DNA of 64,000 nucleotides from an uncultured Bacteroidaceae bacterium (GTDB lineage Bacteria; Bacteroidota; Bacteroidia; Bacteroidales; Bacteroidaceae): contig CAJOGQ010000002.1 in NCBI GenBank assembly GCA_905234125.1, forward strand, positions 455 through 64,454. Direction: 5' to 3'. The stretch's first letter is position 1. Each line of letters begins with the position of its first letter. The notes under the pieces were generated by a model. That model did not search any database. It saw only the letters and a list, made by a program, of their open reading frames with translations, and was not told where the DNA came from. Positions 3,500 through 60,678 of the stretch are shown here, piece after piece. Made by a program: the position numbers and the translations under genes.

Positions 3500-3515
3500 T
3501 CAGACGGAGCCTGAA

Positions 3516-3557
3516 GTGAAAAGTGAAAAGTGAAAAGTGAAAAGTGAAAAGTTAAAA
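3516..3557. repeat. Tandem heptamer array, (GTGAAAA)x5 plus a degenerate unit
   Basis: Five perfect GTGAAAA units (3516-3550) are followed by GTTAAAA. The array starts 17 nt after the stop of the HU-like gene. Confidence 0.95.
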
Positions 3558-4315: not shown

Positions 4316-5125
4316 ATGGCAGATTTATCTAATTTTTCTTTGGAAGGTAAGAACGCCTGGATTACTGGTGCTTCTTATGGTATTGGTTTCAACATCGCTA
4401 AGGCTTTTGTGAAGGCTGGTGCGAAGACGATCGTGTTTAACGACATCAACGAGGCTGCTCTGCAACGTGGTCTGGACAACTACAAGGAGGCTGGCATCAC
4501 GAACGTGAAGGGTTATGTGTGTGACGTAACGGACGAGAAGGCTGTAAAGGCATTGGTGGAGACGATTCACAAGGAGGTGGGTCAGATTGATATTCTCGTG
4601 AACAACGCCGGCATCATCAAGCGCATCCCCATGCATGAGATGGCTCGTCAGGAGTTTCAGCAGGTCATCGATGTTGACCTTGTGGCTCCTTTCATCTGTT
4701 CCAGCGCTGTGTTGCCTGAAATGATGGAGCGTAAAGAGGGCAAGATCATCAACATCTGCTCGATGATGAGTGAGTTGGGTCGTGAGACGGTGAGTGCCTA
4801 CGCTGCCGCCAAGGGTGGTCTGAAGATGCTGACCCGCAACATCTGCTCGGAATATGGCGAGTACAACATCCAGTGCAACGGCATTGGCCCTGGCTATATT
4901 GCCACTCCTCAGACGGCTCCTCTGCGCGAACGTCAGCCTGATGGTTCTCGTCATCCATTTGATTCCTTCATCTGTGCCAAAACTCCAGCCGGCCGTTGGC
5001 TCGATCCTGCTGAGTTGGGTGGACCCGCTGTGTTCCTGGCTTCCCATGCTTCGGATGCTGTGAATGGTCATGTGCTCTACGTGGATGGTGGCATCTTGGC
5101 ATACATCGGCAAGCAGCCTAAATAG
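4316..5125 (+). CDS. Short-chain dehydrogenase/reductase, gluconate 5-dehydrogenase / KduD-like
   Basis: 269-aa ORF. It has the TGASYGIG cofactor motif, NNAG, and a YAAAKGG catalytic Y-x3-K. Confidence 0.75.
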   Translation: MADLSNFSLEGKNAWITGASYGIGFNIAKAFVKAGAKTIVFNDINEAALQRGLDNYKEAGITNVKGYVCDVTDEKAVKALVETIHKEVGQIDILVNNAGIIKRIPMHEMARQEFQQVIDVDLVAPFICSSAVLPEMMERKEGKIINICSMMSELGRETVSAYAAAKGGLKMLTRNICSEYGEYNIQCNGIGPGYIATPQTAPLRERQPDGSRHPFDSFICAKTPAGRWLDPAELGGPAVFLASHASDAVNGHVLYVDGGILAYIGKQPK

Positions 5126-5129
5126 TAGA

Positions 5130-5162
5130 GGGGCAAGGAGCAAGGGGTAAGGAGCAAGAGGA
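5130..5162. repeat. GRGCAAG heptamer array (4.5 units) filling the SDR-rnhB spacer
   Basis: The sequence is GGGCAAG GAGCAAG GGGTAAG GAGCAAG AGGA, and it ends directly at the rnhB ATG (5163). Confidence 0.9.
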
Positions 5163-5858: not shown

Positions 5859-5943
5859 CAGCACAAAACGAAACCCACACGTTGGGCGGAGTTCAAAAAA
5901 TGAATATCAACTCAAGTATTAACACTTAAAAAAGAATACGATT

Positions 5944-7065
5944 ATGAAGGCTTTAAGAACTACATTCGCAGCAGTCATTCTCTTCATCGGAGCAATGACA
6001 GTAAACGCTCAGAGCATGAGCATCGCAGCTATGCGCAGCAATGCACGGTTCTTGACCGATCGCATGGCTTACACCCTCGGTATCCGCGACCCATACCTCA
6101 TCGACGAGATCTATCGCATCAACTATGACTACATTTGGGGTGTGAACGAGTATCTGGACGATGTAGCACTGGGATACTATTACAACGACTACATGACTGT
6201 GGTGGAAGCACGTGACGTGGCTCTCCAAAACCTGTTGGGCTACACCCTCTGGAATCGTCTCATCAACTACACCTACTTCCACCGTCCCATCGTGTTCGCC
6301 AATCGTGGCTGGCACTTCTCCATCTACGACTACGACCGTTACGGTGTGAATCGTTTCTACTACCACGCACCACGTCCATTGGTGACCTACGTAGGCGGAC
6401 ACTTCTTCCGTCCGATGGCTCCACGCGGTGGCAGAATCGTGGCTCCAGCTCCTCACGCAGTTCCTCGTGGCGGTGTGGTTCCTCGTCCTGGTGGTGCTCC
6501 TGCTCCTGGTGGTGCATATCGTGGTGCAGTGCCTCGCGGTGGTCAGATGAACACGCCCGCCCCACGCATGAACAACAACAACCGCAACATGGGTGGCAAC
6601 TACAATCATAACTATAATAATAATGTGAATAACAATAACAACAACGTGAACATCAATGTGAACAGCAATGCGAACGCTCACAGCAATCCTGGAATGAATC
6701 GTGGCAACGCTAACATGGGTGCTTCCAATATGAATCGTGGCAATGCCAACATGGGTGCTTCCAATATGAATCGTGGCAATGCCAACGCAGGTGCTCCAAA
6801 CATGAACCGTAGCACTCCCAACATGGGCAACCAGATGCGTAGCGGTAGCAACATGAACAGCTCTTCCCGTCAGCCTCAGACTCGTCCACAGATTCAACAG
6901 CAGACTCGCACCAGCGCACCTTCTTTCACCAATGCGTCGATGACCACTCGTAGCAATGCAGGTGCAACGATGAGCAGAGGAGGAGGCGCAACGATGAATC
7001 GCGGTGGAGGCGCAACAATGAATCGCGGAGGTGGTCCAGTAGGCCGTGGTGGAGGACGCAGATAA
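5944..7065 (+). CDS. Secreted hypothetical protein with an Asn/Gly/Arg-rich repetitive C-terminal half
   Basis: 373-aa ORF with the signal peptide MKALRTTFAAVILFIGAMTVNAQ. A Tyr/aromatic-rich N-domain is followed by a PRGG-rich segment, poly-Asn and tandem repeats. I recognise no family. Confidence 0.6.
   Translation: MKALRTTFAAVILFIGAMTVNAQSMSIAAMRSNARFLTDRMAYTLGIRDPYLIDEIYRINYDYIWGVNEYLDDVALGYYYNDYMTVVEARDVALQNLLGYTLWNRLINYTYFHRPIVFANRGWHFSIYDYDRYGVNRFYYHAPRPLVTYVGGHFFRPMAPRGGRIVAPAPHAVPRGGVVPRPGGAPAPGGAYRGAVPRGGQMNTPAPRMNNNNRNMGGNYNHNYNNNVNNNNNNVNINVNSNANAHSNPGMNRGNANMGASNMNRGNANMGASNMNRGNANAGAPNMNRSTPNMGNQMRSGSNMNSSSRQPQTRPQIQQQTRTSAPSFTNASMTTRSNAGATMSRGGGATMNRGGGATMNRGGGPVGRGGGRR
6697..6804. 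repeat. 36-bp coding tandem repeat x3 (NRGNANMGASNM)
   Basis: The units are 6697-6732, 6733-6768 and 6769-6804, nearly identical. A second 24-bp x3 repeat (GGATMNRG) lies at 6961-7032. Confidence 0.9.
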
Positions 7066-7197
7066 GGTTTTCTCTCTCTTTACATAAGAGAGGATGCATT
7101 CGATTTTCTCTCTCTTTCTACTATATATTTTACACTTAATTTTATTGGTTCAGGGCTGTTTTTCGTGAGAAAAGTAGCCCCTTTCTTATTTTTTCAC

Positions 7198-7205
7198 TAC
7201 CTTTG
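7198..7205 (+). promoter_or_regulatory. -7 promoter box (TACCTTTG)
   Basis: It lies 20 nt upstream of the ATG at 7225. It sits inside the longer ORF-track prediction (start 7165), which argues for the 7225 start. Confidence 0.55.
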
Positions 7206-7224
7206 CACCCAAATTCATAACACT

Positions 7225-9072
7225 ATGACCATAGAAGAGAAACTCATAGCAGGTGTACAGCAAGCCGTGAAGGCATTGTACGACCTCGACGCGACTGCTC
7301 AACAGGTGCAGTTGCAGAAGACCCGTGACGAATTTGAAGGACACCTCACCGTGGTGGTGTTCCCCTTTGTGAAAGCAGCCAGAAAGTCACCTGAAATGGT
7401 GGGTGAGGAGATAGGAAAATACCTCGTGGAGAATGTGAGTGATGTGGTGGCCAAATACAACGTTGTCAAGGGCTTCCTCAATCTCGTCATCAGCGATGCT
7501 CCTTGGATTGACCTGCTCAACCAGATCAACGCCGACCCAAAGTTCGGTTTCCTGCCTGTCACAGAGCAGAGTCCTTTGGTGATGATTGAATACTCATCGC
7601 CCAACACCAACAAGCCCCTTCACCTCGGCCACGTGCGCAACAACCTCCTTGGTTCTGCCCTTGCACGCATCGTCGAGGCCAATGGCAACAAGGTGGTGAA
7701 GACCAACATCGTCAACGACCGTGGCATCCACATCTGCAAGTCCATGCTCGCATGGCTCAAGTGGGGCAATGGCGAGACTCCTGAATCCTCTGGCAAGAAA
7801 GGCGACCACCTCATCGGCGACTACTACGTGGCCTTCGACAAGCATTATCGTGCTGAGTGTGCAGAACTGGCCAAGCAGTACGAAGCTGAGGGCATGAGTG
7901 CCGATGACGCCAAGGAGAAAGCCAAGCAGGAGGCTCCCCTCATCAAGGAAGCCCATGAGATGCTTGTCAAATGGGAGCAGAACGACCCTGAGGTGCGCAG
8001 TCTCTGGAAGAAGATGAACGAGTGGGTTTATGCCGGATTTGACGAGACCTACAAGATGATGGGCGTAAGCTTCGATAAGATCTATTATGAGTCAGACACC
8101 TACCTCGAAGGCAAGGAAAAGGTGATGGAGGGTCTTGAGAAAGGCTTATTCTATCGCCGCGAAGACGGTTCCGTGTGGGCTGACCTCACCAGCGAAGGGC
8201 TTGATGAGAAACTATTGTTGAGAAGTGACGGTACATCCGTCTACATGACGCAAGATATCGGCACCGCCAAACTTCGTTTCCAGGACTACCCCATTGACAA
8301 GATGATCTACGTGGTGGGCAACGAGCAGAACTACCACTTCCAGGTGCTCTCCATCCTGCTCGACAAACTTGGCTTCAAGTGGGGTAAAGATCTTGTCCAC
8401 TTCTCATACGGCATGGTGGAACTTCCCAACGGTAAGATGAAGAGCCGTGAAGGCACCGTAGTTGATGCCGACGACCTCATGGCCGCCATGATTGATGATG
8501 CTTACGAGGCCAGCAAGGAACGTGTGAAGCAGACTGATATGCCTGAAGAAGAAGCTCGTGAAGTGGCTCGCAAGGTAGGACTCGGAGCCCTCAAGTACTT
8601 TATCCTCAAAGTGGATGCACGCAAGAACATGCTCTTCAATCCTGAAGAGTCCATCGACTTCAACGGCAACACAGGTCCTTTCATCCAGTACACTTACGCA
8701 CGCATCGCCTCTATCCTGAGGAAGGCAAAGGATCAGGGAATCTTGGAGCAAGGTGCAAGTGGCAAGGAGCAAGAACTTTCGTCCAGCGCAGGGGCTGGTC
8801 AGCTCTCCACTAAGGAAACAGAGCTTATTCAGAAACTCAGCCAGTTCCCAGTGGCACTTCGTCAGGCAGGCACCGACTACAGTCCCTCTGGCATTTGCAA
8901 CTACTGCTACGAGCTCACCAAGGCCTTCAACCAGTTCTACCACGACTTCACCATCCTTGGCGAACAAAATGAAGACCTGCGTCAGTTCCGTCTCTCCCTG
9001 GCTAAAGCAGTAGCCAAGGTCATCAGTCTCGGCATGGGACTCTTAGGTATCGAGATGCCTGAGAGGATGTAA
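7225..9072 (+). CDS. argS: Arginine--tRNA ligase
   Basis: It has the class I HIGH motif (PNTNKPLHLGHVRN), the KMSKS-like motif GKMKSREG, and a DALR-type C-terminus ending in M. The start was trimmed to the ATG downstream of the promoter box. Confidence 0.9.
   Translation: MTIEEKLIAGVQQAVKALYDLDATAQQVQLQKTRDEFEGHLTVVVFPFVKAARKSPEMVGEEIGKYLVENVSDVVAKYNVVKGFLNLVISDAPWIDLLNQINADPKFGFLPVTEQSPLVMIEYSSPNTNKPLHLGHVRNNLLGSALARIVEANGNKVVKTNIVNDRGIHICKSMLAWLKWGNGETPESSGKKGDHLIGDYYVAFDKHYRAECAELAKQYEAEGMSADDAKEKAKQEAPLIKEAHEMLVKWEQNDPEVRSLWKKMNEWVYAGFDETYKMMGVSFDKIYYESDTYLEGKEKVMEGLEKGLFYRREDGSVWADLTSEGLDEKLLLRSDGTSVYMTQDIGTAKLRFQDYPIDKMIYVVGNEQNYHFQVLSILLDKLGFKWGKDLVHFSYGMVELPNGKMKSREGTVVDADDLMAAMIDDAYEASKERVKQTDMPEEEAREVARKVGLGALKYFILKVDARKNMLFNPEESIDFNGNTGPFIQYTYARIASILRKAKDQGILEQGASGKEQELSSSAGAGQLSTKETELIQKLSQFPVALRQAGTDYSPSGICNYCYELTKAFNQFYHDFTILGEQNEDLRQFRLSLAKAVAKVISLGMGLLGIEMPERM
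8745..8776. repeat. GRGCAAG-family heptamer array (4 units) in frame inside argS
   Basis: The sequence is GAGCAAG GTGCAAG TGGCAAG GAGCAAG (8746-8773), translated as EQGASGKEQE. Confidence 0.85.
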
Positions 9073-18224: not shown

Positions 18225-20168
18225 ATGAAGAAATACAGGTTCTTATGGCTATTCGTGCTCTTTGCTGTCACGTTGGTGGCAAGAGCAGACAGAGGCGGGT
18301 TCTATTACAAGAACTTCCGCGTTACTGCCATTGTGCACCAAGACAATGTCTGGGAGGTCACAGAAACCATCGACGTGTTCTTTGAGGAACCACGTCATGG
18401 AATCTATCGTTACATTCCTATCACCTTCTCCTTGCAACATGATGTATCGCAAGACCCAGGCAACGAGCCCAAAGTGATTCAGGGGCAGGTGGTGCAGGAC
18501 TGGCATACGTTTAAGTACAGAAGCGAGGTGGAGGACATCAGCGTGGAAGGCGGTGACTTCACCACAGAAGACAGCAACAGCGAGTTTGAGGTCATCCGCA
18601 TTGGTAGTGAATGGCATGAAATCGAAGGTGACAAGCGTTACATCATTCACTACAAATATGTCTATCGCGATGACCGTCGTCCCAACTATGATTATCTCTT
18701 CCACACCATCTTGGGCACCGATTTCAACGAGCGCATCGAAAACTTCTCCTTCCGCATCGAGTTCGAGAAGCCCCTGCCTGCTGATATCAAGCAACGCTTG
18801 GAAGTGTATAGTGGCGCATACGGCAACACTATCAATGGAGTGGAAAACCTTGTTGTCAAGACTAACACGAGTGTCATCACGGGTAGGGCTACCAACATTC
18901 CTCCCAATCATGGCATCACGCTTTACGCCAAACTGCCTGAAGGCTACTACGAAGGCGAACTGTCTGTCAACTACGTGCTTCACTACATCTGCTTTGGCCT
19001 CTCCATCATGCTGATTCTGCTGATTGTCTTCTATCTGTTCAAGACGAAGTCGAAGAAGCCGGTCAAGGTGATTGAGTTCTATCCTCCTGATGGCATCAGC
19101 AGCGCTGAGGTGGGCACCATCATCGACGATAGTGTGGATCAGATTGATATGGCTTCCTTGATTCCTTGGCTTGCAGGACAGGGATATATCAGCATCGAAG
19201 AGAAGGAGAAGGGTGAGAAGCTGAAAAGGACAGAGGTGGTGCTGACAAAGCTGAAGGATCTGCCCAAGGATGCACCTCCTTATCAGAAAAAGATGATGGA
19301 ACTCCTCTTCAAGGGCAACCAGACGGCCAATCTGAGCCACATGGCGGAAAGCCCTTCCACAGTGGAGAAATTCAAATCCTCCCTGAAGGATTCATTCAAG
19401 GGCGACAGGACTCTTTCTTCTTACGAGATGCCTGTCTTCCTCTATCCGCTATTGATTCTGACCACCACGATCATGTTTGGTACAAATTCTGTGCTGGAGA
19501 CCTTCGATGTGGATGAGGGAATCTGGGCCTTCGTGATATGGTGCATTCCATTCACCGTGGGTACATTCCTGCGTTTGTTCGACAGCGACAAGGACATCTT
19601 CAGCAGTACGTGGAAAAAGGTGCTTGCCTTCGTGGTGAAGGCTTTGGTGATGGGATTGATGTGTATTATCTACATCACAACCATCCGTGAATATGGCGCT
19701 CCCATGAACAACATCATTTCGATCGTCATGTTTGTGGTGTGCTTCCTGTTGGGTGAAGCCATCGGACGCTTCAATGTCGATACGGACTATCGTGTACAGA
19801 TGGCAGGACGCCTGCTGGGTTTCAAGGAGTTCATCAAGACAGCAGAGAAGTCGCGATTGGAGGCCTTGCAGCAGGACGACCCTGAATACTTCTACAAGAT
19901 ACTGCCTTACGCGATGGTATTTGGTCTTGGCACCAAATGGGCTAAACTCTTCAAGGACATTGAGGTGAAACAACCAGAGTGGTACAAGACCATCACGCCA
20001 CTTGATGGTTACCAGTTGACTTCCCACATGACCAGTAGCCTCTATTCATCCACCAGCAATGCCATTCAGACCGTCAGCCACGATAGTTCCTCCAGCGGTG
20101 GAGACTTTGGTGGTGGAGGTGGCTTCTCTGGTGGTGGCGGAGGAGGCGGAGGAGGTGGCTCCTGGTAA
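18225..20168 (+). CDS. DUF2207-type membrane protein (usual LemA partner)
   Basis: 647-aa ORF with a signal peptide, an extracytoplasmic N-domain, several TM helices and the characteristic C-terminal tail GGGGFSGGGGGGGGGGSW. Confidence 0.75.
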   Translation: MKKYRFLWLFVLFAVTLVARADRGGFYYKNFRVTAIVHQDNVWEVTETIDVFFEEPRHGIYRYIPITFSLQHDVSQDPGNEPKVIQGQVVQDWHTFKYRSEVEDISVEGGDFTTEDSNSEFEVIRIGSEWHEIEGDKRYIIHYKYVYRDDRRPNYDYLFHTILGTDFNERIENFSFRIEFEKPLPADIKQRLEVYSGAYGNTINGVENLVVKTNTSVITGRATNIPPNHGITLYAKLPEGYYEGELSVNYVLHYICFGLSIMLILLIVFYLFKTKSKKPVKVIEFYPPDGISSAEVGTIIDDSVDQIDMASLIPWLAGQGYISIEEKEKGEKLKRTEVVLTKLKDLPKDAPPYQKKMMELLFKGNQTANLSHMAESPSTVEKFKSSLKDSFKGDRTLSSYEMPVFLYPLLILTTTIMFGTNSVLETFDVDEGIWAFVIWCIPFTVGTFLRLFDSDKDIFSSTWKKVLAFVVKALVMGLMCIIYITTIREYGAPMNNIISIVMFVVCFLLGEAIGRFNVDTDYRVQMAGRLLGFKEFIKTAEKSRLEALQQDDPEYFYKILPYAMVFGLGTKWAKLFKDIEVKQPEWYKTITPLDGYQLTSHMTSSLYSSTSNAIQTVSHDSSSSGGDFGGGGGFSGGGGGGGGGGSW

Positions 20169-20171
20169 TTT

Positions 20172-20194
20172 CTTGCCCCTTGCTCCTTGCCCCT
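20172..20194. repeat. GRGCAAG-family heptamer array (3 units, reverse orientation)
   Basis: The sequence is CTTGCCC CTTGCTC CTTGCCC CT, in the spacer between the DUF2207-type gene and coaX. Confidence 0.85.
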
Positions 20195-20920: not shown

Positions 20921-20942
20921 GTCAACTCTCAACTGTCAACTA
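20921..20942. repeat. AACTCTC-family heptamer array (3 units)
   Basis: The sequence is GTCAACTCTCAACTGTCAACTA. Its reverse complement supplies the TGA stop of the 20936..21361 gene. Confidence 0.8.
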
Positions 20943-21361
20943 TCCCCTCTCCTTTCCCCCACAATCATGATGACTTCGTCCTTCAACTCATCAGGCAGTT
21001 CTACTGCACGCAGTTGAAGGGAACGAACCCATCCTGCCACTTCGTCCTCTCTCATCGTGTAGAGCACTTCGCGAAATTCTTCGATTTCCTCCGACGAATA
21101 CATATCGCTTTCCTTCCCACGAAAGCGGTCAAGTTCCTCATCATTATAATATTCTATCTGTTTGCTGATAGCCGCCAACAGACTTTCCTTCTCACAGGTT
21201 TCGTGTTGGCCACAGCACTCCATGTCCTCCACCTGCTTGATGGAAGGCAATTCCGTAATCTCTCCCCTTTTCAGTTGCCCTTTCAGCTTCCGTTCACGCA
21301 TCCAGCCTGCCACGAAAGCCAAAGCACCCAAAAGGACAAGTCCAAGAATCAGATAAGACAT
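20936..21361 (-). CDS. Hypothetical single-pass membrane protein with a Cys-rich motif and an acidic C-terminal domain
   Basis: 141-aa ORF with the N-terminal TM segment YLILGLVLLGALAFVAGW and the motif MECCGQHETCEK. Its start overlaps the aroA 3' end by 13 nt. Confidence 0.55.
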   Translation of the reverse strand: MSYLILGLVLLGALAFVAGWMRERKLKGQLKRGEITELPSIKQVEDMECCGQHETCEKESLLAAISKQIEYYNDEELDRFRGKESDMYSSEEIEEFREVLYTMREDEVAGWVRSLQLRAVELPDELKDEVIMIVGERRGDS

Positions 21362-22677
21362 GGGATTTCAAAACTGATAGTTGAAAGTTGAGAGCTGGGA
21401 GTTGAGGGTTGGGGGTTGAAGGTTGGGAGGTCAAAACCAACGGCTTTCAAGTCCTTCCAATAGAAAGGATAGGATTTGGACACCACCTGAGGATTGTTGA
21501 TGATGATGCTCCCCCGTTTCAAAGCCACAGGCGCAAAAGCCATTGCCATACGATGATCCTCGTAAGTGTCGATGCACTCCTCTTGCTCCTCGCCCCCTGC
21601 TCCTTGCTCCTTCACTCCATCCCATATCAGTTCACTGTCATTCCTGTCTTCCAAACGGAATCCCAACTTGGCGAGTTCCCGTTTCAAAGCCTCTATGCGG
21701 TCTGTTTCCTTGATTTTCAGGCTCTGCAGACCTGTGAAATGGAAGGGCATACCCAGCATGCAACAAGTCACCACAAACGTCTGTGCCAAGTCGGGCATAT
21801 CCACAAAGTCCTCATCCAATCGCTCCACACATTGGCCATTCTTCCTCAACACCACATCTTCACCCCGATATTCCGTGCTCACGCCCAAGCGTTCAAACAC
21901 TTTCGCCCCACGGCTGTCGCCTTGCAGACTCTCTGCAAACAAGCCATGCAACACCACCTCAGCATCCTCATTCGGAGCCAAAGCCACCACCTCATACCAA
22001 TAGCTGGCAGCGCTCCAGTCGCTCTCCACCCGAAAATCGCAGGGCTGGTAACGAACAGGCTCCACCACGATGGTCTGTGCATCAGTCCACCCCGCCTTCG
22101 CACCAAAAATACGCATCATCGACAACGTCATATCGATGTATGGCCGGCTCACCACTTCCCCCGTCAGCTTCAGCGTCAGTCCCTTTTTCAGTCGAGGGGC
22201 AATCAGCAGCAACGCAGAGATAAATTGTGAACTGACATTGCCAGCCAGCTCCACTTCTCCACCCTCCATCTGAGGCACACCCGTGATGCGCAAAGGAGGA
22301 AACCCTTCTTTCTCCACATACTCCACCTGCGCGCCCAGCGTTCGCAGCGCCTCCACCAAGATGCCAATAGGCCTTTGCTTCATGCGTTCACTGCCCGTGA
22401 TGGTCTGCGTGCCCTCCAGCACCGCCAGCATAGCCGTCGAGAAACGCATGGCCGTGCCAGCCGCACCAATGTCAATCGTTTCAAAATTCTTCTGCATCCG
22501 CTTCGCCATCCACATCGCCATCACCTTCGTATCGTCACAGATACTCACATTCGCCAAAGTCGAATCTCCCTCAGTCAACGAACCGATAGCCAATGCCCTA
22601 TTGCTGATGCTCTTCGACGGAGGAAGATTTACTTCACCCTTGATCTCCTTGGGTGCAATCACTTTCATCTGTTCCAT
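21349..22677 (-). CDS. aroA: 3-phosphoshikimate 1-carboxyvinyltransferase (EPSP synthase)
   Basis: It has LPPSKSISNRAL near the N-terminus and the EPSP synthase fold throughout. The start was trimmed to MEQMKVIAPKE (ATG at 22677), downstream of the promoter box at 22706-22713. Confidence 0.9.
   Translation of the reverse strand: MEQMKVIAPKEIKGEVNLPPSKSISNRALAIGSLTEGDSTLANVSICDDTKVMAMWMAKRMQKNFETIDIGAAGTAMRFSTAMLAVLEGTQTITGSERMKQRPIGILVEALRTLGAQVEYVEKEGFPPLRITGVPQMEGGEVELAGNVSSQFISALLLIAPRLKKGLTLKLTGEVVSRPYIDMTLSMMRIFGAKAGWTDAQTIVVEPVRYQPCDFRVESDWSAASYWYEVVALAPNEDAEVVLHGLFAESLQGDSRGAKVFERLGVSTEYRGEDVVLRKNGQCVERLDEDFVDMPDLAQTFVVTCCMLGMPFHFTGLQSLKIKETDRIEALKRELAKLGFRLEDRNDSELIWDGVKEQGAGGEEQEECIDTYEDHRMAMAFAPVALKRGSIIINNPQVVSKSYPFYWKDLKAVGFDLPTFNPQPSTPSSQLSTISFEIPCLI
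21376..21430. repeat. Heptamer array (about 7 units, GTTGRRG / AACTCTC-related) encoding the AroA C-terminal tail
   Basis: On the plus strand the sequence is AGTTGAA AGTTGAG AGCTGGG AGTTGAG GGTTGGG GGTTGAA GGTTGGG. On the gene strand it reads DLPTFNPQPSTPSSQLSTI. Confidence 0.85.
21578..21613. repeat. GRGCAAG-family heptamer array (4 units) in frame inside aroA
   Basis: The plus strand reads CTTGCTC CTCGCCC CCTGCTC CTTGCTC (21583-21610). The gene strand encodes KEQGAGGEEQE. Confidence 0.85.
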
Positions 22678-23817: not shown

Positions 23818-23900
23818 GAGCCGGTACCCCTAAGGCTTTGAGCCAGTAGCTCAAAGGCGTTGAGGCTCCGGCACGATGTCGTTGAGGCTGTGGCTCGTCC
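23818..23900 (-). repeat. REP-like ~80-bp palindromic element, copy D (inverted relative to copies A-C)
   Basis: It is built from ~22-nt CCGGCTC..GCC.TTGAG units. It shares the flank GGCTCGTCCATTAAGTA with copy C, and that flank contains the dusB stop codon. Confidence 0.85.
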
Positions 23901-28233: not shown

Positions 28234-29757
28234 TTATTTGAGTTTTTCCTTATTGTAAATCTTTTTGCCCCCCACAATCAGTATGGATTTCTTTGACTGA
28301 ACGTCAACCTTCCGTCCGCTCAGGTCGTAAGAGTTGAGAGTTGACAATTGAGAGTTGACAGTTTTGGGGGCTTGGATAGCCAAAGGGTCTTGGCTGAATT
28401 GCCACGAGTCGAAGTCGAACAGAGAGGAACCATTGCCAGAGAACGTGAAGTAGAGGTCACAAACGCCAGTGATGGGGGTTCTCAGTTCGCAGGTCACGTC
28501 CTGCCACTCACCGTTGGTTGGCTCAATGGACACAGTGCCCTTGATGGTGCCCGTCTTGCTTCCGATACGGACAGACATCGAACCCTTCTGCTCAGCCTTC
28601 ACCTTGGCTGTGAACACCTTTGCTCCAGCCTCGCCAAAGTCCACATTGCGCACCTTGATATAGTCGCCACTGCTGATGTTCGTCACATAACAACCCGTGT
28701 AGTCGCCCATGCACTTCACACCCTGACATTGGTTGATGGTCTCAGCCTCCTGGGGTGCGTATGGGTCGAGCGTCTGCAAGGGAGCGACACCCTTGGCCGT
28801 GTATTTGATGAAGGGCAACGAACCATCTTCATTAGGCGTGAACTCCTCCACACAAGTCGAACGTTTGTAGCCACCACCACCCGACAACTTGCCGTTGTGA
28901 TAGAACAGATAATGGTGTCCCTTGAATTCCACTGAGCCTCCATGAATGGTGAAGCTGTTGTCTGCCAACCCCATCACCTTGCCCTGATACGTCCAAGGGC
29001 CAGTTATCTTGTCAGCTGTCGAATAAGCCCAATGCTCAGGCACGCCGCCAGCCGCATACTCCAAATAATACTTGCCATTCCTCTTGTACACCCACGAAGC
29101 CTCCTCAAAGTTGGTCTTCGGCGTGCCATCATCGTTATAACCCTTATAGGGGCCAAAAGCCTTCTCGTCCTTCGTCTTCACCTCATTCTCACCACCTACA
29201 ATCGCCATCATCGTCTTCGACAGCTTGGCATACCACAGCATGTTGTTACCATAGAAGAGGTAAGCCTGTCCGTCGTCGTCAATAAAAACTGTAGGGTCTA
29301 TCTTGAACCATCCCTTCACCAGGGGCTTCTTGATGGAATCCTTGTAAGGGCCAGCCGGATGGTCAGCCACAGCCACACCGATGCCAGGATATGCCTCTCC
29401 TTTGATGGTGGCCGTCACATACCAATACCACTTTCCGTTGCGCTCTATGCACTGGCTTGCCCAGCAGTCGTTGTCAGTCTTCGCCCACGCCTTAAAGGTC
29501 TCTCCCGTCAGCGGAGTGCCCCGATAAGTCCAGTTCACCATATCGACCGTGCTGTACAACAACCAGTCCTTCATGGTGAAGTAGTTATTCTCCGTCACGT
29601 CCTCATCGTGGTCCACAAAGAGATACAACGTGTCGTTGTGCACGTATGGTGCAGGGTCAGGCGTGTAGCGGTCACAGATGATAGGGTTCTGTGCCGCAGC
29701 CATCATAGAGGCCAGCGTGATGCCCCCCAAAACAAGCAATCTTTTCATCTTTCTCAT
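28234..29757 (-). CDS. Glycoside hydrolase family 43 with a CBM6-like module and a T9SS C-terminal sorting domain
   Basis: It has a signal peptide and a GH43 five-bladed propeller (DPAPYVHNDTLYLF, WASQCIE). A CBM6-like segment follows. The C-terminus YDLSGRKVDVQSKKSILIVGGKKIY is typical of Por/T9SS CTDs. The start is 29757 or 29748. Confidence 0.8.
   Translation of the reverse strand: MRKMKRLLVLGGITLASMMAAAQNPIICDRYTPDPAPYVHNDTLYLFVDHDEDVTENNYFTMKDWLLYSTVDMVNWTYRGTPLTGETFKAWAKTDNDCWASQCIERNGKWYWYVTATIKGEAYPGIGVAVADHPAGPYKDSIKKPLVKGWFKIDPTVFIDDDGQAYLFYGNNMLWYAKLSKTMMAIVGGENEVKTKDEKAFGPYKGYNDDGTPKTNFEEASWVYKRNGKYYLEYAAGGVPEHWAYSTADKITGPWTYQGKVMGLADNSFTIHGGSVEFKGHHYLFYHNGKLSGGGGYKRSTCVEEFTPNEDGSLPFIKYTAKGVAPLQTLDPYAPQEAETINQCQGVKCMGDYTGCYVTNISSGDYIKVRNVDFGEAGAKVFTAKVKAEQKGSMSVRIGSKTGTIKGTVSIEPTNGEWQDVTCELRTPITGVCDLYFTFSGNGSSLFDFDSWQFSQDPLAIQAPKTVNSQLSTLNSYDLSGRKVDVQSKKSILIVGGKKIYNKEKLK
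28331..28363. repeat. AACTCTC-family heptamer array (4 units) forming the linker before the T9SS CTD
   Basis: The plus strand reads GAGTTGAGAGTTGACAATTGAGAGTTGACAGTT. The gene strand encodes VNSQLSTLNS. Confidence 0.85.
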
Positions 29758-29949: not shown

Positions 29950-30030
29950 ACGAGCCACCGGCTCAACGCCTTTGAGCTACCGGCTCGTCGCCCTTGAGCT
30001 ACCGGCTCAACGCCTTGAGGGTACCGGCTG
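29950..30030 (+). repeat. REP-like ~80-bp palindromic element, copy A
   Basis: The sequence is ACGAGCCACCGGCTCAACGCCTTTGAGCTACCGGCTCGTCGCCCTTGAGCTACCGGCTCAACGCCTTGAGGGTACCGGCTG. It lies just downstream of the CotH-like gene stop (30036). Confidence 0.85.
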
Positions 30031-32384: not shown

Positions 32385-33509
32385 ATGAATCGTCAGGAGA
32401 TTATAGCAAGCATTGCGCTGAGCAAACTGAAGGGGTTGAACCTGCTGAATGCCAGAACACTGGTGGAGGCGATGGGTTCGGCTTCTGAGGTGTTGGCTCA
32501 TCGGAAGGACATCGTGAAGATGATTCCCAACGTGAGCCAGCGCTTGGTGGAGGCTTTTGCCGATGTGGATGTGGCCTTGAAAGAAGCTGAGCAGGAGATG
32601 GAGTTTGTGGAGAAGAAGAATCTGAAGGTCTTCACGCTGATGGATGAGGATTATCCAGGACGTCTGAGAGAGTGTGAGGATGCTCCTTTGGTGCTCTTCT
32701 ATTGCGGTTCTGCCGACTTGAACAGCCCTCACATCATCAATATGGTGGGCACAAGAAAGTGCTCGGAGTATGGGAAGGAAATCTGCAAGAACTTCATTGC
32801 CGACCTGAAACGCATGGCTCCAGACATCGTCATTGTGAGCGGCTTGGCATACGGCATCGACATCTGTGCTCATCGTGCCGCTTTGGACAATGGGATGGCC
32901 ACAGTGGGCGTTTTGGCTCATGGACTGGACACCATCTATCCTACGATGCATCGGCAGACAGCTGGCGAAATGGTACATCAGGGTGGCGGACTGCTGACGG
33001 AATACACCACCCACACGGAACCTGAGAAGCTGAACTTTGTGCGCAGAAACAGGATTGTGGCTGGCCTTTCAGATGCCTGCATCGTGGTAGAGAGTGCCAA
33101 GAAAGGCGGGTCACTCATCACGGCTGAGTTGGCGATGGACTATAACCGTGAAGTGTTTGCTTTCCCTGGCCGTGTGTATGATGAACACAGCATCGGATGC
33201 AACAACCTCATCAAACAGCATCAGGCCACCCTGCTGACGGATGCTAAGGACTTCTTGGAGACGATGGGGTGGATGACTGCAGATGTGAAGAAACCAGAGG
33301 CCATACAGCAGGAACTGTTTCCCGACCTCACGGATGAAGAAAAGGCTCTCCTGAACACCCTGAAGGATGTGGATGAGAAACACATCAACCAGATAGCCAT
33401 CGACACGAATATCCCCTATTCCCGTGCCAGCATGATTCTCTTCGACTTGGAGATGAAGGGGCTGGTGAAGGCACTTGGGGGGGCAAGATACAAAAGATGT
33501 AGAATGTAG
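32385..33509 (+). CDS. dprA: DNA-processing protein DprA
   Basis: It has a Rossmann-like DprA core (GLAYGIDICAHRAAL, GGSLITA) and a winged-helix C-terminus. The start was set to the ATG at 32385 rather than the GTG at 32349. Confidence 0.85.
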   Translation: MNRQEIIASIALSKLKGLNLLNARTLVEAMGSASEVLAHRKDIVKMIPNVSQRLVEAFADVDVALKEAEQEMEFVEKKNLKVFTLMDEDYPGRLRECEDAPLVLFYCGSADLNSPHIINMVGTRKCSEYGKEICKNFIADLKRMAPDIVIVSGLAYGIDICAHRAALDNGMATVGVLAHGLDTIYPTMHRQTAGEMVHQGGGLLTEYTTHTEPEKLNFVRRNRIVAGLSDACIVVESAKKGGSLITAELAMDYNREVFAFPGRVYDEHSIGCNNLIKQHQATLLTDAKDFLETMGWMTADVKKPEAIQQELFPDLTDEEKALLNTLKDVDEKHINQIAIDTNIPYSRASMILFDLEMKGLVKALGGARYKRCRM

Positions 33510-33541
33510 AATGTAAAATGGTAAATGTAAAATGTAAAATG
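33498..33541. repeat. GTARAAT heptamer array (6 units)
   Basis: The sequence is (T)GTAGAA TGTAGAA TGTAAAA TGGTAAA TGTAAAA TGTAAAA TG. It contains the dprA stop (TAG, 33507-33509) and the ATG at 33539. Confidence 0.9.
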
Positions 33542-33658
33542 AAAAAGACTTTTCTTATCATCATATTCTCCCTGCTTGCTATATCAATATGGGCATAGCG
33601 AGAAGAGTTTTTCAGCACCATCAGCATCACCCAGAATGCAGGTGGAAGACTTGGTACG

Positions 33659-36410: not shown

Positions 36411-38438
36411 TTATTTCTTCTTTTTCTTTTTATTGAAGGCTTCGTAGAAAGGTTGGGACTCTACTTGGCCTTCGAAGAACTTGGCCCATTCGGCAGCGCC
36501 TTTGGGACCACGAGCAGAGGTGTAGCCACGTTCCTCACGGGAGGGTTTTTCCTTCGATTTGGTTGTTCTGGCAGATTTGGCGGAGGCACCACGAATGACT
36601 CCACTGCCCTTCTTGGGTTTTCTCTCGCCAAAGGAGCGGCGATTCTCTTCATGATGACTCTCACGTTTGGGGGTGCGTTGTCCTTCAGGCTGGTCAGTCA
36701 CCTCCACATTCACTTTTCTGCCATCGAAGTCAGTTCCATTGAGCACGTTGAGGACGGTCTTGGTCTGCTGTTCTGGCACCTCGAAGAAGGAGAAGTTCTG
36801 CATCAGGTCGATGCGTCCAAGGTCGATGCGTGCTCCTTGTGCCACACGATTGATGAAGCCCATGAAGACTTTGGGGCTGATGCCGTCTTTCTTGCCAAGA
36901 TTGATGAAGAGGCGGGTGTAGCCAGCCTCAGCAGTGCGTGAACGGTCTCCACCACGACCTCTCGCTCCTCGCTCCTTGCTCCTTGCTCCGAACTCCTTGT
37001 CCCCACGACGGTCTCCTTTTTCTGATGGCTGAATGATTTCAGGAGCGTTCTTATAATAGTTGAGGAAGGTGTTGAACTCCATCGACACCATGCGCTTGAT
37101 GAGGTCTTCCTTCTCCATCATGTCGAACTTGCGATAAACCTCTGGGAGGAAGGGAGCAATCTCCTCCTCATCTACAGAGACTTTCTCGATGTCGTCAATC
37201 ACCTTATAGAGTTGCTTGGCACAAATCTCCTGACCTGTCGGCAAGATGCCAGGCACGAACTTCTTCTGAATCTGCTGTTCGATGGCACGAACCTTGCCCT
37301 TCTCCTTCACATGGATGATGGAAATGGAGGTGCCTGAACGTCCTGCACGTCCTGTTCTGCCCGAACGGTGAGTGTAGCTCTCGATGTCGTCAGGCAGACC
37401 ATAGTTGATGACGTGGGTGAGTTCGTCCACATCCAATCCACGAGCCGCCACATCTGTAGCCACCAGCAACTGCACACGGTGCTGACGGAACTTTTGCATG
37501 GTCAGGTCACGCTGAGCCTGTGAGAGTTCGCCGTGCAAGGATTCTGCATTGTAGCCATCACGGATGAGCTTGTCTGCAATTTCCTGCGTCTCCATTCGAG
37601 TGCGGCAGAAGATGATTGCATAAATCTCTGGGTAATAGTCTGCCACACGCTTCAGGGCATTGTACTTATCCCTTGCGCTCACCATATAATAGATGTGGTT
37701 CACATGCTCAGCCCCTTCGTTACGGCTTCCCACCACAATCTCCTTAGCATCGTGCAAGTAGTTCTTCGATATGCGTTCAATCTCCTTGCTCATCGTGGCT
37801 GAGAAGAGCAAAGTGTTTCGTTCAGCAGGGACTCCTGCGAGGATGGTGTCGATACTTTCTGAAAAGCCCATGTTCAGCATCTCATCGGCCTCGTCCAGCA
37901 CCACATTTTCCACTGTTCCGAGCTTGGCCACTCCACGCTCCATGAGGTCAACGAGGCGGCCAGGCGTGGCGACAATCACCTGCACTCCCTTCTTCAGGGC
38001 TCGAATCTGAGGCTCGATGCTGGCGCCACCATAGACAGCGAGCACATGCAGTCCCTTGATATATTTGGAATAGTCCTTCAGGTCGTCCGTAATCTGCAAG
38101 CAAAGTTCTCGTGTGGGAGCCATGATGACAGCCTGCACATCGGTACGGTTCGTGTCGATTTTCTGCAACACGGGCAGACCATACGCCGCCGTCTTTCCTG
38201 TTCCTGTCTGAGCCAGAGCGACGACATCGTTGTTGTGTCCCAATAAATAAGGGATGACCTTCTCCTGCACAGGCATCGGGGTGACGTAGCCCATCTCCTG
38301 GATGGCCTTCAAGATTTCGCCCGACACGCCCAATTCTTCGAAGGTATGCTCCACTTTAGGCATTTCGTTTTCTTCATGCATCGCTTGAAGCTCATTGTTC
38401 ATTCCTTGAGCTTCCAGCATTTCTTTAGTTTCTTCCAT
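36411..38438 (-). CDS. DEAD-box ATP-dependent RNA helicase (DeaD/CsdA-like with a DbpA-type RNA-binding domain and a basic tail)
   Basis: It has the Q motif (F..LG ... PMPVQ) and the motifs AQTGTGKT, DEAD, SAT and HRSGRTGRAG. The start is 38438 (a 14-nt overlap with the upstream kinase gene) or 38420. Confidence 0.9.
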   Translation of the reverse strand: MEETKEMLEAQGMNNELQAMHEENEMPKVEHTFEELGVSGEILKAIQEMGYVTPMPVQEKVIPYLLGHNNDVVALAQTGTGKTAAYGLPVLQKIDTNRTDVQAVIMAPTRELCLQITDDLKDYSKYIKGLHVLAVYGGASIEPQIRALKKGVQVIVATPGRLVDLMERGVAKLGTVENVVLDEADEMLNMGFSESIDTILAGVPAERNTLLFSATMSKEIERISKNYLHDAKEIVVGSRNEGAEHVNHIYYMVSARDKYNALKRVADYYPEIYAIIFCRTRMETQEIADKLIRDGYNAESLHGELSQAQRDLTMQKFRQHRVQLLVATDVAARGLDVDELTHVINYGLPDDIESYTHRSGRTGRAGRSGTSISIIHVKEKGKVRAIEQQIQKKFVPGILPTGQEICAKQLYKVIDDIEKVSVDEEEIAPFLPEVYRKFDMMEKEDLIKRMVSMEFNTFLNYYKNAPEIIQPSEKGDRRGDKEFGARSKERGARGRGGDRSRTAEAGYTRLFINLGKKDGISPKVFMGFINRVAQGARIDLGRIDLMQNFSFFEVPEQQTKTVLNVLNGTDFDGRKVNVEVTDQPEGQRTPKRESHHEENRRSFGERKPKKGSGVIRGASAKSARTTKSKEKPSREERGYTSARGPKGAAEWAKFFEGQVESQPFYEAFNKKKKKK
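36961..36990. repeat. GRGCAAG-family heptamer array (4 units) in frame inside the helicase gene
   Basis: The plus strand reads CTCGCTC CTCGCTC CTTGCTC CTTGCTC. The gene strand encodes GARSKERGAR. Confidence 0.85.
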
Positions 38439-47039: not shown

Positions 47040-48029
47040 ATGAATATAACAATGATTTCCCATAGCATCATCGCGTCAGCCATCCCCCTTTGGGGGTCGG
47101 GGGGCTTTCTTTTCATTGACTGGCAACCCTCCATCGAAGCCTTCTCCATAGGCTCCTTCAGCGTCCGCTGGTACGGCCTGCTCTGGTGCCTCGGCTTCCT
47201 CACCGCCTACCTCATCGTCCAGCGCCTCTACCGTCTGCAGAAAATAGAAGACGAGAAGTTCGAGCCCCTCTTCTTCTACTGCTTCGTCGGCGTGCTCGTC
47301 GGCGCCCGACTCGGCCACTGCCTCTTCTATGAGCCCGGCTACTACCTGACCGACGGCACCCATTTCCTCGAGATGTTCATCCCCTTCCACCACATGCCCG
47401 ATGGCTCCTGGAAGTATACTGGCTACGAAGGTCTCGCCTCCCACGGCGGAACCATCGGACTCATCATCGCTATGGCTCTCTACTGCCGCAAGACTAAAGT
47501 CCGTCCCTGGACAGTCATGGACAACGTCGCCATCGCTGTGCCCGCCATGGCCTGCCTCATCCGCCTCGGAAATCTGATGAACTCCGAAATCATTGGCAAC
47601 CCCACCGACCTCCCTTGGGGCTTCATCTTCCATACTCGCGACGCCCTCGTCGACGGAGTCCCCGCACCTCGCCATCCCGCCCAGCTCTACGAAGCCATCG
47701 CCTACCTCATCATCTTCATCCTTGGAGCCCTCATCTATTGGCACTCCTACAAGGCCACTCTCGCTCCTTGCTCCTCGCCCCTCGCTCCTAAGACCAGCTC
47801 CTCGCCCCTGGCACCTAAAACCGCTCCTGGCACCGGCTTCCATTTCGGCTTTTGCCTCGCCACCATCTTCACCTTCCGCTTCTTCATCGAGTTCCTCAAG
47901 AAGGAGCAAGTCGATTTTGAGCGCGGCATGGCTCTCGACATGGGTCAGCTCCTCAGCGTCCCCTTCATCCTCCTTGGCTGTTGGTGCATGTGGCACTCCC
48001 TGAAGAAAAGCAATCCCGTTCATGTGTGA
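47040..48029 (+). CDS. lgt: Prolipoprotein diacylglyceryl transferase
   Basis: It is a polytopic membrane protein with VRWYGLLWCLGF, SHGG and FRFFIEFLK. It also contains a repeat-encoded insertion (see findings). The exact start is uncertain. Confidence 0.85.
   Translation: MNITMISHSIIASAIPLWGSGGFLFIDWQPSIEAFSIGSFSVRWYGLLWCLGFLTAYLIVQRLYRLQKIEDEKFEPLFFYCFVGVLVGARLGHCLFYEPGYYLTDGTHFLEMFIPFHHMPDGSWKYTGYEGLASHGGTIGLIIAMALYCRKTKVRPWTVMDNVAIAVPAMACLIRLGNLMNSEIIGNPTDLPWGFIFHTRDALVDGVPAPRHPAQLYEAIAYLIIFILGALIYWHSYKATLAPCSSPLAPKTSSSPLAPKTAPGTGFHFGFCLATIFTFRFFIEFLKKEQVDFERGMALDMGQLLSVPFILLGCWCMWHSLKKSNPVHV
47758..47836. repeat. GRGCAAG-family array (reverse orientation, 4 units) plus a 27-nt tandem duplication, in frame inside lgt
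   Basis: The array CTCGCTC CTTGCTC CTCGCCC CTCGCTC (47760-47787) runs into TCCTCGCCCCT(C/G)GC(T/A)CCTAA(G/A)ACC repeated about 2.4 times. The encoded peptide is LAPCSSPLAPKTSSSPLAPKTAPGT. Confidence 0.85.
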
Positions 48030-48081
48030 CGGTTCTCCTCTTCCTCACGCCTTTTTTTTCGCGCGAAATTTTTATTTTTTT

Positions 48082-48160
48082 GAGCCGGAGCCTCAACGCC
48101 CTTGAGGCTCCGGCTCAACGTCATCGTGCTACCGGCTCGTTGCCTTTGGGGTACCGGCTC
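48082..48160 (+). repeat. REP-like ~80-bp palindromic element, copy B
   Basis: It contains a perfect 15-bp stem, GAGCCGGAGCCTCAA (48082-48096) with TTGAGGCTCCGGCTC (48102-48116), around a 5-nt loop. The element ends in GGTACCGGCTC, like copies A and C. Confidence 0.9.
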
Positions 48161-48199
48161 CATACCCGCTCTAACTCCCCCTGCTTCTAACCTCAAAAT

Positions 48200-48341
48200 G
48201 ACTCAGAATTCAGAATTCAGTTTTCTGAGGAGCAGGTAAAATGTGAACCTAAAAATTTTATTATTATATTAATATAATAATAATACTTATTTTCACTTTT
48301 CACACCCTTCCCTATAAAACTGAGTTTCTGAATTCTGAGTC
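48200..48341. repeat. ~140-bp near-palindromic structure: 25-bp inverted arms of GAATTCA heptamers around a perfect 26-bp AT palindrome
   Basis: The left arm is GACTCAGAATTCAGAATTCAGTTTT (48200-48224). The right arm is AAAACTGAGTTTCTGAATTCTGAGTC (48316-48341). The central palindrome is 48258-48283 (TTATTATTATATT|AATATAATAATAA). Confidence 0.85.
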
Positions 48342-48371
48342 ACTGAGTCTGTTTCGGAGTGTCTTTGTTAA

Positions 48372-56320: not shown

Positions 56321-56402
56321 GACGAGCCACCGGCTCAACGCCCTTGAGGCTCCGGCTCAACGCCTTTGAGCTACCGGCTCGTTGCCTTGGAGGTACCGGC
56401 TC
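56321..56402 (+). repeat. REP-like ~80-bp palindromic element, copy C
   Basis: The sequence is GACGAGCCACCGGCTCAACGCCCTTGAGGCTCCGGCTCAACGCCTTTGAGCTACCGGCTCGTTGCCTTGGAGGTACCGGCTC. It lies in the convergent intergenic region. Confidence 0.9.
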
Positions 56403-60553: not shown

Positions 60554-60572
60554 ACACATTTTAATTAGGAAA

Positions 60573-60659
60573 GAGGAATTGGGAATGAGGAATTGTTACT
60601 TTTTTTAAGAAAAAACGTCCAAAATGGCAAATAATACCCAATTCCTCATTCTTAATTCC
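60573..60659. repeat. 22-bp inverted repeat made of GGAATKR heptamers around a 43-bp A/T-rich spacer
   Basis: AGGAATTGGGAATGAGGAATTG (60573-60594) pairs with CAATTCCTCATTCTTAATTCCT (60638-60659), 20 of 22 complementary. It lies between two divergent promoters. Confidence 0.85.
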
Positions 60660-60670
60660 TCATTCTTTCT

Positions 60671-60678
60671 TACCTTTG
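60671..60678 (+). promoter_or_regulatory. -7 promoter box (TACCTTTG)
   Basis: It lies 31 nt upstream of the ATG at 60709. The ORF-track TTG start at 60676 sits inside this box. Confidence 0.5.

Follow-up and report, generated by a model that had tools for sequence, protein, structure and literature searches.

Tandem GRGCAAG heptanucleotide arrays in housekeeping genes and gene junctions of an uncultured Bacteroidaceae bacterium, and a possibly related palindromic element of rumen Prevotellaceae

The stretch of DNA analysed here, called the window below, comprises 64,000 nucleotides from an uncultured Bacteroidaceae bacterium (GenBank assembly GCA_905234125.1, contig CAJOGQ010000002.1, positions 455 to 64,454 of the forward strand). 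Tandem arrays of the heptanucleotide GRGCAAG occur in it at six places. The first lies between an SDR gene and rnhB (5129-5162, + strand), where AG GGGCAAG GAGCAAG GGGTAAG GAGCAAG AGGA takes up the 37-bp spacer and is followed by the rnhB ATG. A second one is found in frame in argS (8745-8773, + strand) and encodes LEQGASGKEQE where the DALR anticodon-binding domain begins (residues 507-517 of 615). The 44-bp spacer between a DUF2207 gene and coaX holds 3.3 units with the purine strand on the - strand (20172-20194). In aroA (21582-21612, - strand) the array is in frame as KEQGAGGEEQE, residues 356-366, in a loop ahead of the IDTYEDHRM motif, and in the gene of a DEAD-box helicase (36961-36989, - strand) it is in frame as GARSKERGAR, in the linker between the Helicase_C and DbpA RNA-binding domains. 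The sixth copy (47760-47828) has its purine strand on the - strand and is read antisense as LAPCSSPLAP in lgt, which lies on the + strand; it is followed by a 27-nt tandem duplication of the array end (SSPLAPKTx). This duplication, in which the end of the heptamer array and its flank are repeated with a period of 27 nt (47770-47828, SSPLAPKTS and SSPLAPKTA), is a secondary, frame-preserving expansion. Four of the six copies are thus in frame within conserved genes, identified by Pfam or PDB matches as those of ArgRS (tRNA-synt_1d, DALR), EPSP synthase, a helicase with DEAD, Helicase_C and DbpA domains, and LGT.

Arrays were searched for as two GRGCAAG units in direct succession, with no more than one mismatch, and 100 dinucleotide-preserving shuffles of the window served as the null. 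The window contains 13 such matches at the six loci whereas 0.10 are expected, and 13 was reached in 0 of the 100 shuffles. Tandem Repeats Finder (TRF) also recovered all six arrays, with a period of 7 and 3.3-4.4 copies. An earlier note on this DNA had reported six arrays at these places, one of them filling the rnhB spacer up to the ATG, and both statements are borne out. Its coordinates are right for five loci and off by one base for the aroA array (21582-21609), and the peptides that it quoted for ArgRS, AroA, the helicase and Lgt agree with the translations, as do its gene identities with the Pfam and PDB matches. An assembly or sequencing artefact is a negligible possibility, since the GRGCAAG arrays are present in at least eight independent metagenome assemblies of the species and intact reading frames pass through them in essential genes. 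All six window arrays are followed by A, and four of the six by AG. Judged from the array sequences, variant units are commoner in the genic arrays, which are interrupted by them, than in the intergenic ones. The copies are single arms of about 30 bp without a partner arm within 150 nt. They are not self-complementary, and RNA folding of the window arrays revealed no structure (-0.7 kcal/mol for the array in the rnhB spacer). Analysis of GC skew in the window gave no orientation rule tied to replication, and an exact-protein look-up with Lgt returned no match.

The earlier note had stressed that GRGCAAG is free of stop codons in all six frames. This is true but unremarkable, as 590 of the 1170 heptamer classes (50%) have the same property. 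Likewise, it had emphasized that the arrays are read in different frames and on different strands. Both orientations do occur; the frame differences are uninformative among copies on the same strand, because a 7-nt unit visits all three frames in every 21 nt. The arrays of ArgRS, AroA and the helicase (DeaD) all encode permutations of one cyclic heptapeptide, EQGARSK (from GAGCAAG). Its proposal that the conserved entity is a DNA module and not a peptide is upheld by the intergenic copies and by the presence of both orientations.

The sites were compared with those of syntenic contigs from two sister species (L128 and L131, ArgRS about 90% identical) and from a more distant relative (L133). 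In both sister species the SDR-rnhB spacer measures 3 bp (AAATAA GGA ATG), which implies that about 34 bp were inserted in the window. ArgRS has 615 residues in the window and 598-599 in most of the orthologues that are about 90% identical, and the array-coded loop segment exceeds that of Pyrococcus horikoshii ArgRS (2zue) by 5 residues. At the codon position of the argS array the sister species carry other heptamers, (CAACTGT)n in L128 (ELSTANCQLST) and (CAACTTT)4 in L131 (QLSTFNFQLST). Three different words, CAACTGT, CAACTTT and GRGCAAG, at one codon position of ArgRS amount to word turnover at this site. Adjoining the window array, at 8774-8811 (+ strand), a putative decayed CAACTNT-type heptamer array (AACTTTCG...CAGCTCTCCACT) was recognized in a by-eye alignment with L128 and L131, and might be a remnant of the CAACTNT-type array that the orthologues carry there. 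The AroA loop from KETDR to DHRM is 51-65 residues long in relatives, and in the window it is 7 residues longer than in Vibrio AroA (3nvs). The nearest array-free AroA orthologue (L134, 87% identity) has unrelated sequence in the place of the array. The Lgt loop measures 77 residues in the window and 54-87 in relatives, with a mode of 64, and its segment does not align to Escherichia coli Lgt (5azb). The linker between Helicase_C and DbpA in DeaD is 69-97 residues long and rich in R, K, E and G in 80 relatives, 0 of which have a GRGCAAG array at the window's position. An independent GRGCAAG x4 array was observed in the C-terminal tail of DeaD in a distant relative (L217, 4662-4690); no other GRGCAAG array occurs in the 506 kb of deaD-relative loci. 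L133 lacks the array at 20172, where its equivalent spacer holds unrelated sequence, as well as a second array at 20922 that is described below. Upstream of the argS promoter box (TAnnTTTG), L128 has (TTTTCAC)4 at 5928-5968, and the window a single TTTTCAC at about 7180-7200. As proposed in the earlier note, the array-coded segments are lineage-specific and lie in permissive loops or linkers: this is supported by the alignments of ArgRS, AroA, DeaD and Lgt, in which these segments are hypervariable and loop placement rests on gaps relative to the PDB sequences.

Two contigs, L008 and L135, represent strains of the window's own species. The array in the rnhB spacer has seven units in L008 and four in the window, a difference of +21 bp. 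In L135 the array at 20922 is one unit shorter (2 versus 3), the 20172 array is identical, and the aroA array carries two substitutions, among about 45 substitutions over approximately 4.4 kb. The check for unit-number polymorphism that the earlier note had recommended therefore gave a positive result, and slippage surely contributes to the resizing of the arrays. The strains differ by 21 bp within a spacer, by one unit at the 3' end of a gene, or by substitutions only. A role as a contingency simple sequence repeat (SSR) in phase variation was also considered and was dropped, as the hosts are essential housekeeping genes and the genic arrays are interrupted.

These comparisons bear on the question whether the arrays serve a function, either as a cis-element (a purine-rich leader or platform for an RNA-binding protein at rnhB, or a G-quadruplex regulator) or as a selected flexible linker peptide. 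The array that adjoins the rnhB ATG is in the sense orientation, contains AAGGAG and is unstructured as RNA, and GARSKERGAR suits the basic composition of the DeaD linker. Bacteroidota are generally regarded as not depending on Shine-Dalgarno (SD) pairing, and this was counted against a leader function. TAACTGA arrays are situated directly upstream of start codons (PMC4679880), and the preference for four units parallels that of the G-quadruplex-forming GGGNATC arrays (PMC4692102). However, the sister species have a 3-bp spacer and array-free loops, the copies occur in both orientations and in widely differing contexts, unit number and sequence differ between strains, different words occupy the same ArgRS site, and no array is conserved at orthologous sites. 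None of the window arrays has four G3 tracts. The G-quadruplex reading of the window copies was rejected, with 0-2 GGG(G) tracts in each; some rumen copies, (GGGCAAG)4, would qualify. Altogether a function of this kind is regarded as improbable.

The abundance of period-7 repeats was compared by TRF with equal settings and at least 2.8 copies, as a strict run-scan undercounts imperfect alternating arrays. The window contains 16 period-7 arrays (250 per Mb) versus 6 arrays when the remaining periods between 4 and 12 are combined, and the shuffles gave about 0. The density was 276 per Mb in the loci of the sister species and 61 per Mb in wider relatives, the latter represented by 80 loci surrounding deaD, sampled without bias (506 kb). 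GRGCAAG itself forms six arrays in the 64 kb of the window versus one in the 506 kb of deaD-relative loci, and its arrays are about 47-fold denser in the window. Together, these two values for the wider relatives indicate that the amplification is lineage-specific. Period 7 is the commonest tandem period in the wider relatives too.

A genome scan for four exact GRGCAAG units yielded at least 119 stretches from many phyla. Among the matches listed, to which all counts in this and the next two paragraphs refer, those from Halomonas, Saprospiraceae and other groups were long and variable, with 4-25 units and fuzzy ends. The arrays of rumen Prevotellaceae/Bacteroidales had exactly four units in 50 of 87 cases and were followed by A in 79%. 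In Prevotellaceae the arrays have conserved flanks, tTTAG on the left and AGRAT on the right. Moreover, their loci comprised 20 hairpin elements next to 51 solo arms. In the hairpins a forward array is followed by a core and then by the reverse complement, (CTTGCYC)x4. The core measures 26 nt in 8 of the 20 elements and 24-140 nt in the others. The 26-nt core reads AGGATTGCTCTGGCTGTTGGTATTCT or its complement, and an element that contains it is a palindrome of about 82 bp, in which the conserved non-repeat parts accompany the four-unit module. An identical 26-nt core was present at two different loci of one metagenome-assembled genome (MAG; L032 and L111). Array-rich MAGs from the rumen include RUG12173, RUG216 and the bins CAMKTM01 and CAMJZV01. 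Ten of the 18 isolated four-unit solo arms are followed by a core-like AGRWT start. The arms form 28-nt inverted repeats in these relatives, and the flanks TTTAG...CTAAA are inverted as well and not direct; no consistent direct duplication was seen. In the AroA loop of L133 a decayed forward arm is followed by a loop and by CTCGCYC x4. An Rfam scan of the window and nine hairpin-bearing loci found nothing except one tRNA.

Full hairpins were also encountered in frame in genes of relatives, namely those of a KAS-like (beta-ketoacyl-synthase-like) enzyme, an aminotransferase, Dus (dihydrouridine synthase) and a glycosyltransferase. In L114 a full hairpin is in frame in ArgRS, in the loop that carries the array of the window (RSIIRK-EQGARSKEQ-ENTPSSDKS-LAPCPLPLAPK-EIELIQK); this in-gene hairpin folds weakly as DNA (-17 kcal/mol, z = -2.2). 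The palindromic element was observed at the same site of orthologous glycosyltransferase-like genes in two rumen MAGs (L085, about 516-652, and L101, about 4850-4931). In L085 the gene contains one more arm with its core, nested or duplicated, and this points to insertion into existing copies or beside them. A selected RNA or DNA stem was dropped as a candidate. The arms of the hairpins do not covary at the R/Y position, where agreement was 36% versus 49% expected and hence slightly negative, so that there is no sign of the structure itself being maintained. There is a trend in the hairpins towards GAG in the forward and CCC in the reverse arm, which is compatible with selection at the protein level (E/K/S against P).

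Selection on copies inside genes is apparent from their orientation. Long stop-free frames (at least 60 codons on each side) enclose 45 of 88 Prevotellaceae arrays, and in these 45 the purine strand is the sense strand 35 times and the antisense strand 10 times. The hydrophilic EQGARSK should be tolerated better than LAPCSLL, which would explain this bias. For every array within an open reading frame (ORF) of the window the stop-free strand is the sense strand. Families with stop codons on both strands (ATAACTT) are intergenic only, and a stop-free variant of the GAGTTGA family allows aroA to run about 25 codons past the end of its relatives.

Taken together, it is considered fairly probable that a short dispersed repeat of the heptanucleotide class has given rise to all six arrays, having been amplified in a Prevotella-like lineage by copy-paste, resized by slippage and filtered by selection, and that it is selfish or neutral in nature. 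The basic module would be AG-(GRGCAAG)x4-AG. Two inverted modules around the core of about 26 nt AGGATTGCTCTGGCTGTTGGTATTCT would constitute the element of about 82 bp in rumen Prevotellaceae, to which the copies of the window would be related as solo arms. New copies may arise by copy-paste between loci, through template switching or transposition, and may often land where unit-like microhomology or some other heptamer array was present beforehand. After insertion, replication slippage alters the number of units and point changes the units themselves, as is seen between strains. Within genes, purifying selection would keep the stop-free orientation and a total length divisible by 3, and would limit the positions to hypervariable surface loops, interdomain linkers and gene ends, whereas outside genes the copies would occupy short gene junctions. 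The element would need no cellular function and is probably functionless, its copies being predicted to be translated as loop peptides of the EQGARSK type (sense) or the LAPCSxL type (antisense). A further-reaching version is put forward tentatively: gut and rumen Prevotellaceae might harbour a hitherto undescribed family of very small mobile palindromic elements, with arms of four GRGCAAG, and such elements and solo arms might be in frame in many essential enzymes, repeatedly in the same loops (ArgRS, AroA, DeaD) across species.

The earlier note had envisaged one process that deposits or expands the module at gene junctions and in permissive loops. As to the DNA-level module this was largely right. 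The uniform size of about four units is better explained by the palindrome than by size-limited expansion, because the four-unit module is the arm of the palindromic element in rumen Prevotellaceae. This element with its four-unit arms had escaped the note, as had the heptamer families of other words, in the window and, in relatives, at the codon position of ArgRS where the window has GRGCAAG.

Several observations weigh against copying from an element. Neither a mobilising enzyme nor a target-site duplication or transposition intermediate turned up, in an analysis that included no transposase search. The window holds no GRGCAAG hairpin, so that a hairpin origin of the solo arms rests on other species. 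Hairpin arms do not covary. Two intergenic empty sites were open to examination, and each holds a seed resembling a unit (TAAGGA where the spacer meets rnhB, and the single TTTTCAC); such seeds are also expected from purely local expansion. Among the matches listed, the GRGCAAG arrays from other phyla (Halomonas, Saprospiraceae) look like ordinary long microsatellites without element structure. In viral contigs permuted control words gave 2, 9 and 10 matches and GRGCAAG gave 1. Since these control words were as frequent or more so and the cross-phylum scan provided only a lower bound of at least 119 stretches, GRGCAAG is not claimed to be special outside Prevotellaceae.

The seeds, the long variable arrays with fuzzy ends in other phyla and the frequency of the control words, together with the copy-number polymorphism in strains, are what local birth would produce, i.e. 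chance duplication of a 7-mer expanded by slippage that favours 7-nt units, with GRGCAAG recurring through sequence-dependent slippage or common seeds (SD-like AAGGAG) and not through copying. Period 7 is the commonest in the wider relatives and in many prokaryotes (PMC4679880, PMC4692102), and a polymerase footprint has been proposed for 7-nt slippage units (Mrazek et al., 2007, as reported in PMC4679880). Local birth does not account, however, for one word of 1170 classes at six loci in 64 kb, about 47-fold over relatives, or for the sharp four-unit mode and the conservation of non-repeat flanks and of the 26-nt core among the Prevotellaceae matches listed. Nor does it explain why one genome has an identical core at two loci, or why arrays replace unrelated sequence in the AroA and ArgRS loops, where the array-free L134 has no identical seed. 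It is therefore judged rather unlikely as the sole origin of the arrays.

A more exotic possibility is templated synthesis, in which a reverse transcriptase or primase-polymerase would copy a 7-nt RNA or DNA template at nicks or breaks, in the manner of telomerase-like interstitial repeats. This would account for a fixed period across unrelated words and phyla, the period being strictly 7 for many words, and would be in line with the amplification of the same word in several unrelated genomes among the matches listed and with arrays that replace rather than merely add loop sequence. It does not predict the hairpin layout, the conserved non-repeat core or the four-unit mode, no candidate enzyme or template was seen, and slippage is a simpler account of the conserved period. 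Templated synthesis is accordingly thought very improbable, and dispersal by copy-paste remains the preferred explanation.

The GRGCAAG family is accompanied in the window by period-7 arrays of other words, which were located by TRF and, where coding, translated. Unless noted otherwise their coordinates refer to the + strand. The VapE-like/BT4734-N primase-type ORF (141-2405) has two heptamer arrays within its N-terminal domain: an AAGTGAA array at 437-466, in which the sole in-frame TGA position reads GGA, and an AACTCTC array (GAGTTGA family) at 585-615, encoding NSQLSTLNSQP, of which the stop-free strand is the sense strand. AAGTGAA x6.3 is found again between genes at 3514-3557. The 3' end of coaX carries a TCAACTC array, also of the GAGTTGA family (20922-20941). 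Another member of this family (21386-21429) forms, in antisense, the C-terminal extension of aroA (LPTFNPQPSTPSSQL). Here (21349-21429) read-through of the stop-free array adds a tail of about 25 residues (LPTFNPQPSTPSSQLSTISFEIPCLI); this tail and the beginning of the next ORF (20936-21361) overlap. In L133 an AAGTTRR array is located at the 3' junction of aroA, which terminates within the array. An AGAGTTG array is present in antisense in the C-terminal tail of a GH43/CBM6 protein (28330-28363, KTVNSQLSTLNS), and ATGTAAA x7 (33497-33546) provides the stop codon of dprA (TAG 33507-33509). At 60562-60672, without strand assignment, an intergenic hairpin has two 34-nt arms made of GAGGAAT-type heptamer/14-mer arrays with 43 nt between them (-39.4 kcal/mol when folded as RNA, z = -6.4). 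This genome hence has the layout of a loop between tandem-repeat arms for another word. Two further inverted pairs with tandem-repeat arms were noticed, GTGAAGGTA x2 with 50 nt between (2414-2527) and TCAGAAT x2.6 with 110 nt between (48199-48342).

Repeats of other periods were observed as well. A separate family occupies four places (29952-30029, 56324-56402, 23818-23875 and 48080-48118). It comprises intergenic tandem 22-mers GAGCTACCGGCTCAACGCCTT, with 3.6 copies at two loci, and related palindromes, TTGAGCCGGAGCCTCAA and TTGAGGCTCCGGCTCAA, past gene ends, and may represent terminator-like elements or elements resembling repetitive extragenic palindromes (REP). The ORF at 5944-7065 (373 residues, no Pfam match on record) contains tandem repeats of 36, 24, 21 and 12 nt that give rise to N/G/M-rich segments, and the length of its product is 373, 361, 350 or 340 residues across strains and species. 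The poly-glycine tail of the DUF2207 protein (GGDFGGGGGFSGGGGGGGGGGSW) stems from a GGCGGAGGA-type repeat (20100-20168) directly before the array at 20172.

What makes this lineage of interest is that it offers natural experiments: filled and empty sites, unit polymorphism between strains, turnover of words at one codon position, and a link between tandem heptamers and a palindrome. Repeat DNA that is translated, as predicted from the intact frames, in surface loops of essential enzymes of abundant gut and rumen bacteria bears on the way in which new loop sequence enters conserved proteins. If the arrays are passenger DNA only, such segments should not be taken for functional insertions. For annotation it matters that arrays extend gene ends and provide stop codons; they are also useful for strain typing. 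If the tentative reading as a mobile palindrome is true, the element would be a Bacteroidota counterpart of the Rickettsia palindromic elements (RPE), and, because its arm, unit and period are simple, a tractable system for asking what sets the 7-nt ruler of heptanucleotide repeats in bacteria.

Recognition of heptanucleotide repeats as the most frequent long simple repeats of many bacteria dates from 1990, and the short tandemly repeated repetitive (STRR) sequences of cyanobacteria of the CCCCAGT type are among them. To our knowledge, their origin and the reason for a period of 7 are unexplained. They are the most abundant long simple sequence repeats (LSSRs) in many prokaryotes (PMC4679880, PMC4692102), and the LSSRs of Mrazek et al. 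(2007), as described in these two papers, include dispersed heptanucleotide repeats. GGGNATC arrays of Xanthomonas and Nostoc prefer about four units and lie within 50 bp of ORF ends (PMC4692102), and those of TAACTGA, which occur in Beggiatoaceae, Cyanobacteria and a few Bacteroidetes, lie immediately upstream of start codons (PMC4679880). The statement in the earlier note that no described repeat class matches can consequently not be maintained, given these dispersed heptanucleotide repeats (STRR, LSSRs, GGGNATC, TAACTGA) and the in-frame RPEs. The GRGCAAG arrays share with the LSSR/STRR class the head-to-tail 7-nt arrays, one or a few words at many loci, lineage specificity and copy-number variation. 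They also share the position at ORF ends, before start codons or after stops, and the preference for about four units as in GGGNATC. A tandem 7-nt unit, recurrence above chance, an excess of period 7 and unit-number variation between strains were all found here. They differ in that GGGNATC and TAACTGA are mostly non-coding, whereas GRGCAAG is in frame in four of six copies in the window and in about half of those in rumen relatives, among the matches listed. Further differences are the new word, the new host group (Prevotellaceae), the identity of the array with a palindrome arm in relatives, and the lack of canonical G-quadruplex potential in the window arrays. The small dispersed repeats (SDR) of Nostoc attributed to Elhai (2008) are said to be elements of 21-27 nt within tandem heptameric repeats, nested and possibly mobile. 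They are cyanobacterial, and inverted arms were reportedly not described for them.

RPEs are palindromic repeats in frame in 19 Rickettsia genes, and what they do there is either neutral or mildly harmful (Ogata, 2000, as reviewed in PMC2229807). Like them, GRGCAAG is a short repeat that is both intergenic and fused in frame into conserved housekeeping genes where the fold tolerates it, as predicted here from intact frames. There is no sequence relationship, however. RPEs measure 105-146 bp, have arms of unique sequence and are known from Rickettsia, whereas the element in the relatives measures about 82 bp and has arms of four heptamers; a palindrome is found in the relatives only, the window containing single arms of about 30 bp. 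In REPINs, inverted REP doublets around a less conserved spacer form a hairpin that is likely to be the replicative unit, singlets look like decayed remnants, and new REP copies tend to land in or beside existing ones (Bertels and Rainey, 2011, PMC3116915). Inverted doublets and singlets occur in the Prevotellaceae loci (20 hairpins and 51 solo arms among the matches listed), with solo arms only in the window. The T-A-G ahead of the arm and the pattern of doublets and singlets are reminiscent of systems of REP/REPIN and REP-associated tyrosine transposases (RAYT). REPs are themselves palindromic, strictly extragenic and RAYT-associated, whereas the GRGCAAG arms are tandem, non-palindromic and often intragenic, a comparison made without a search for RAYT. 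Full-text literature searches with the array sequences gave unrelated primer matches only, an absence that applies to that resource, and nothing relevant was found on heptanucleotide repeats or miniature inverted-repeat transposable elements (MITE) of Prevotella. The heptanucleotide repeat class itself is already described. The GRGCAAG word and its host group appear to be new, as do the large proportion of copies that are in frame in essential genes, their recurrence in the same loops across species, and a palindrome with arms of tandem heptamers.

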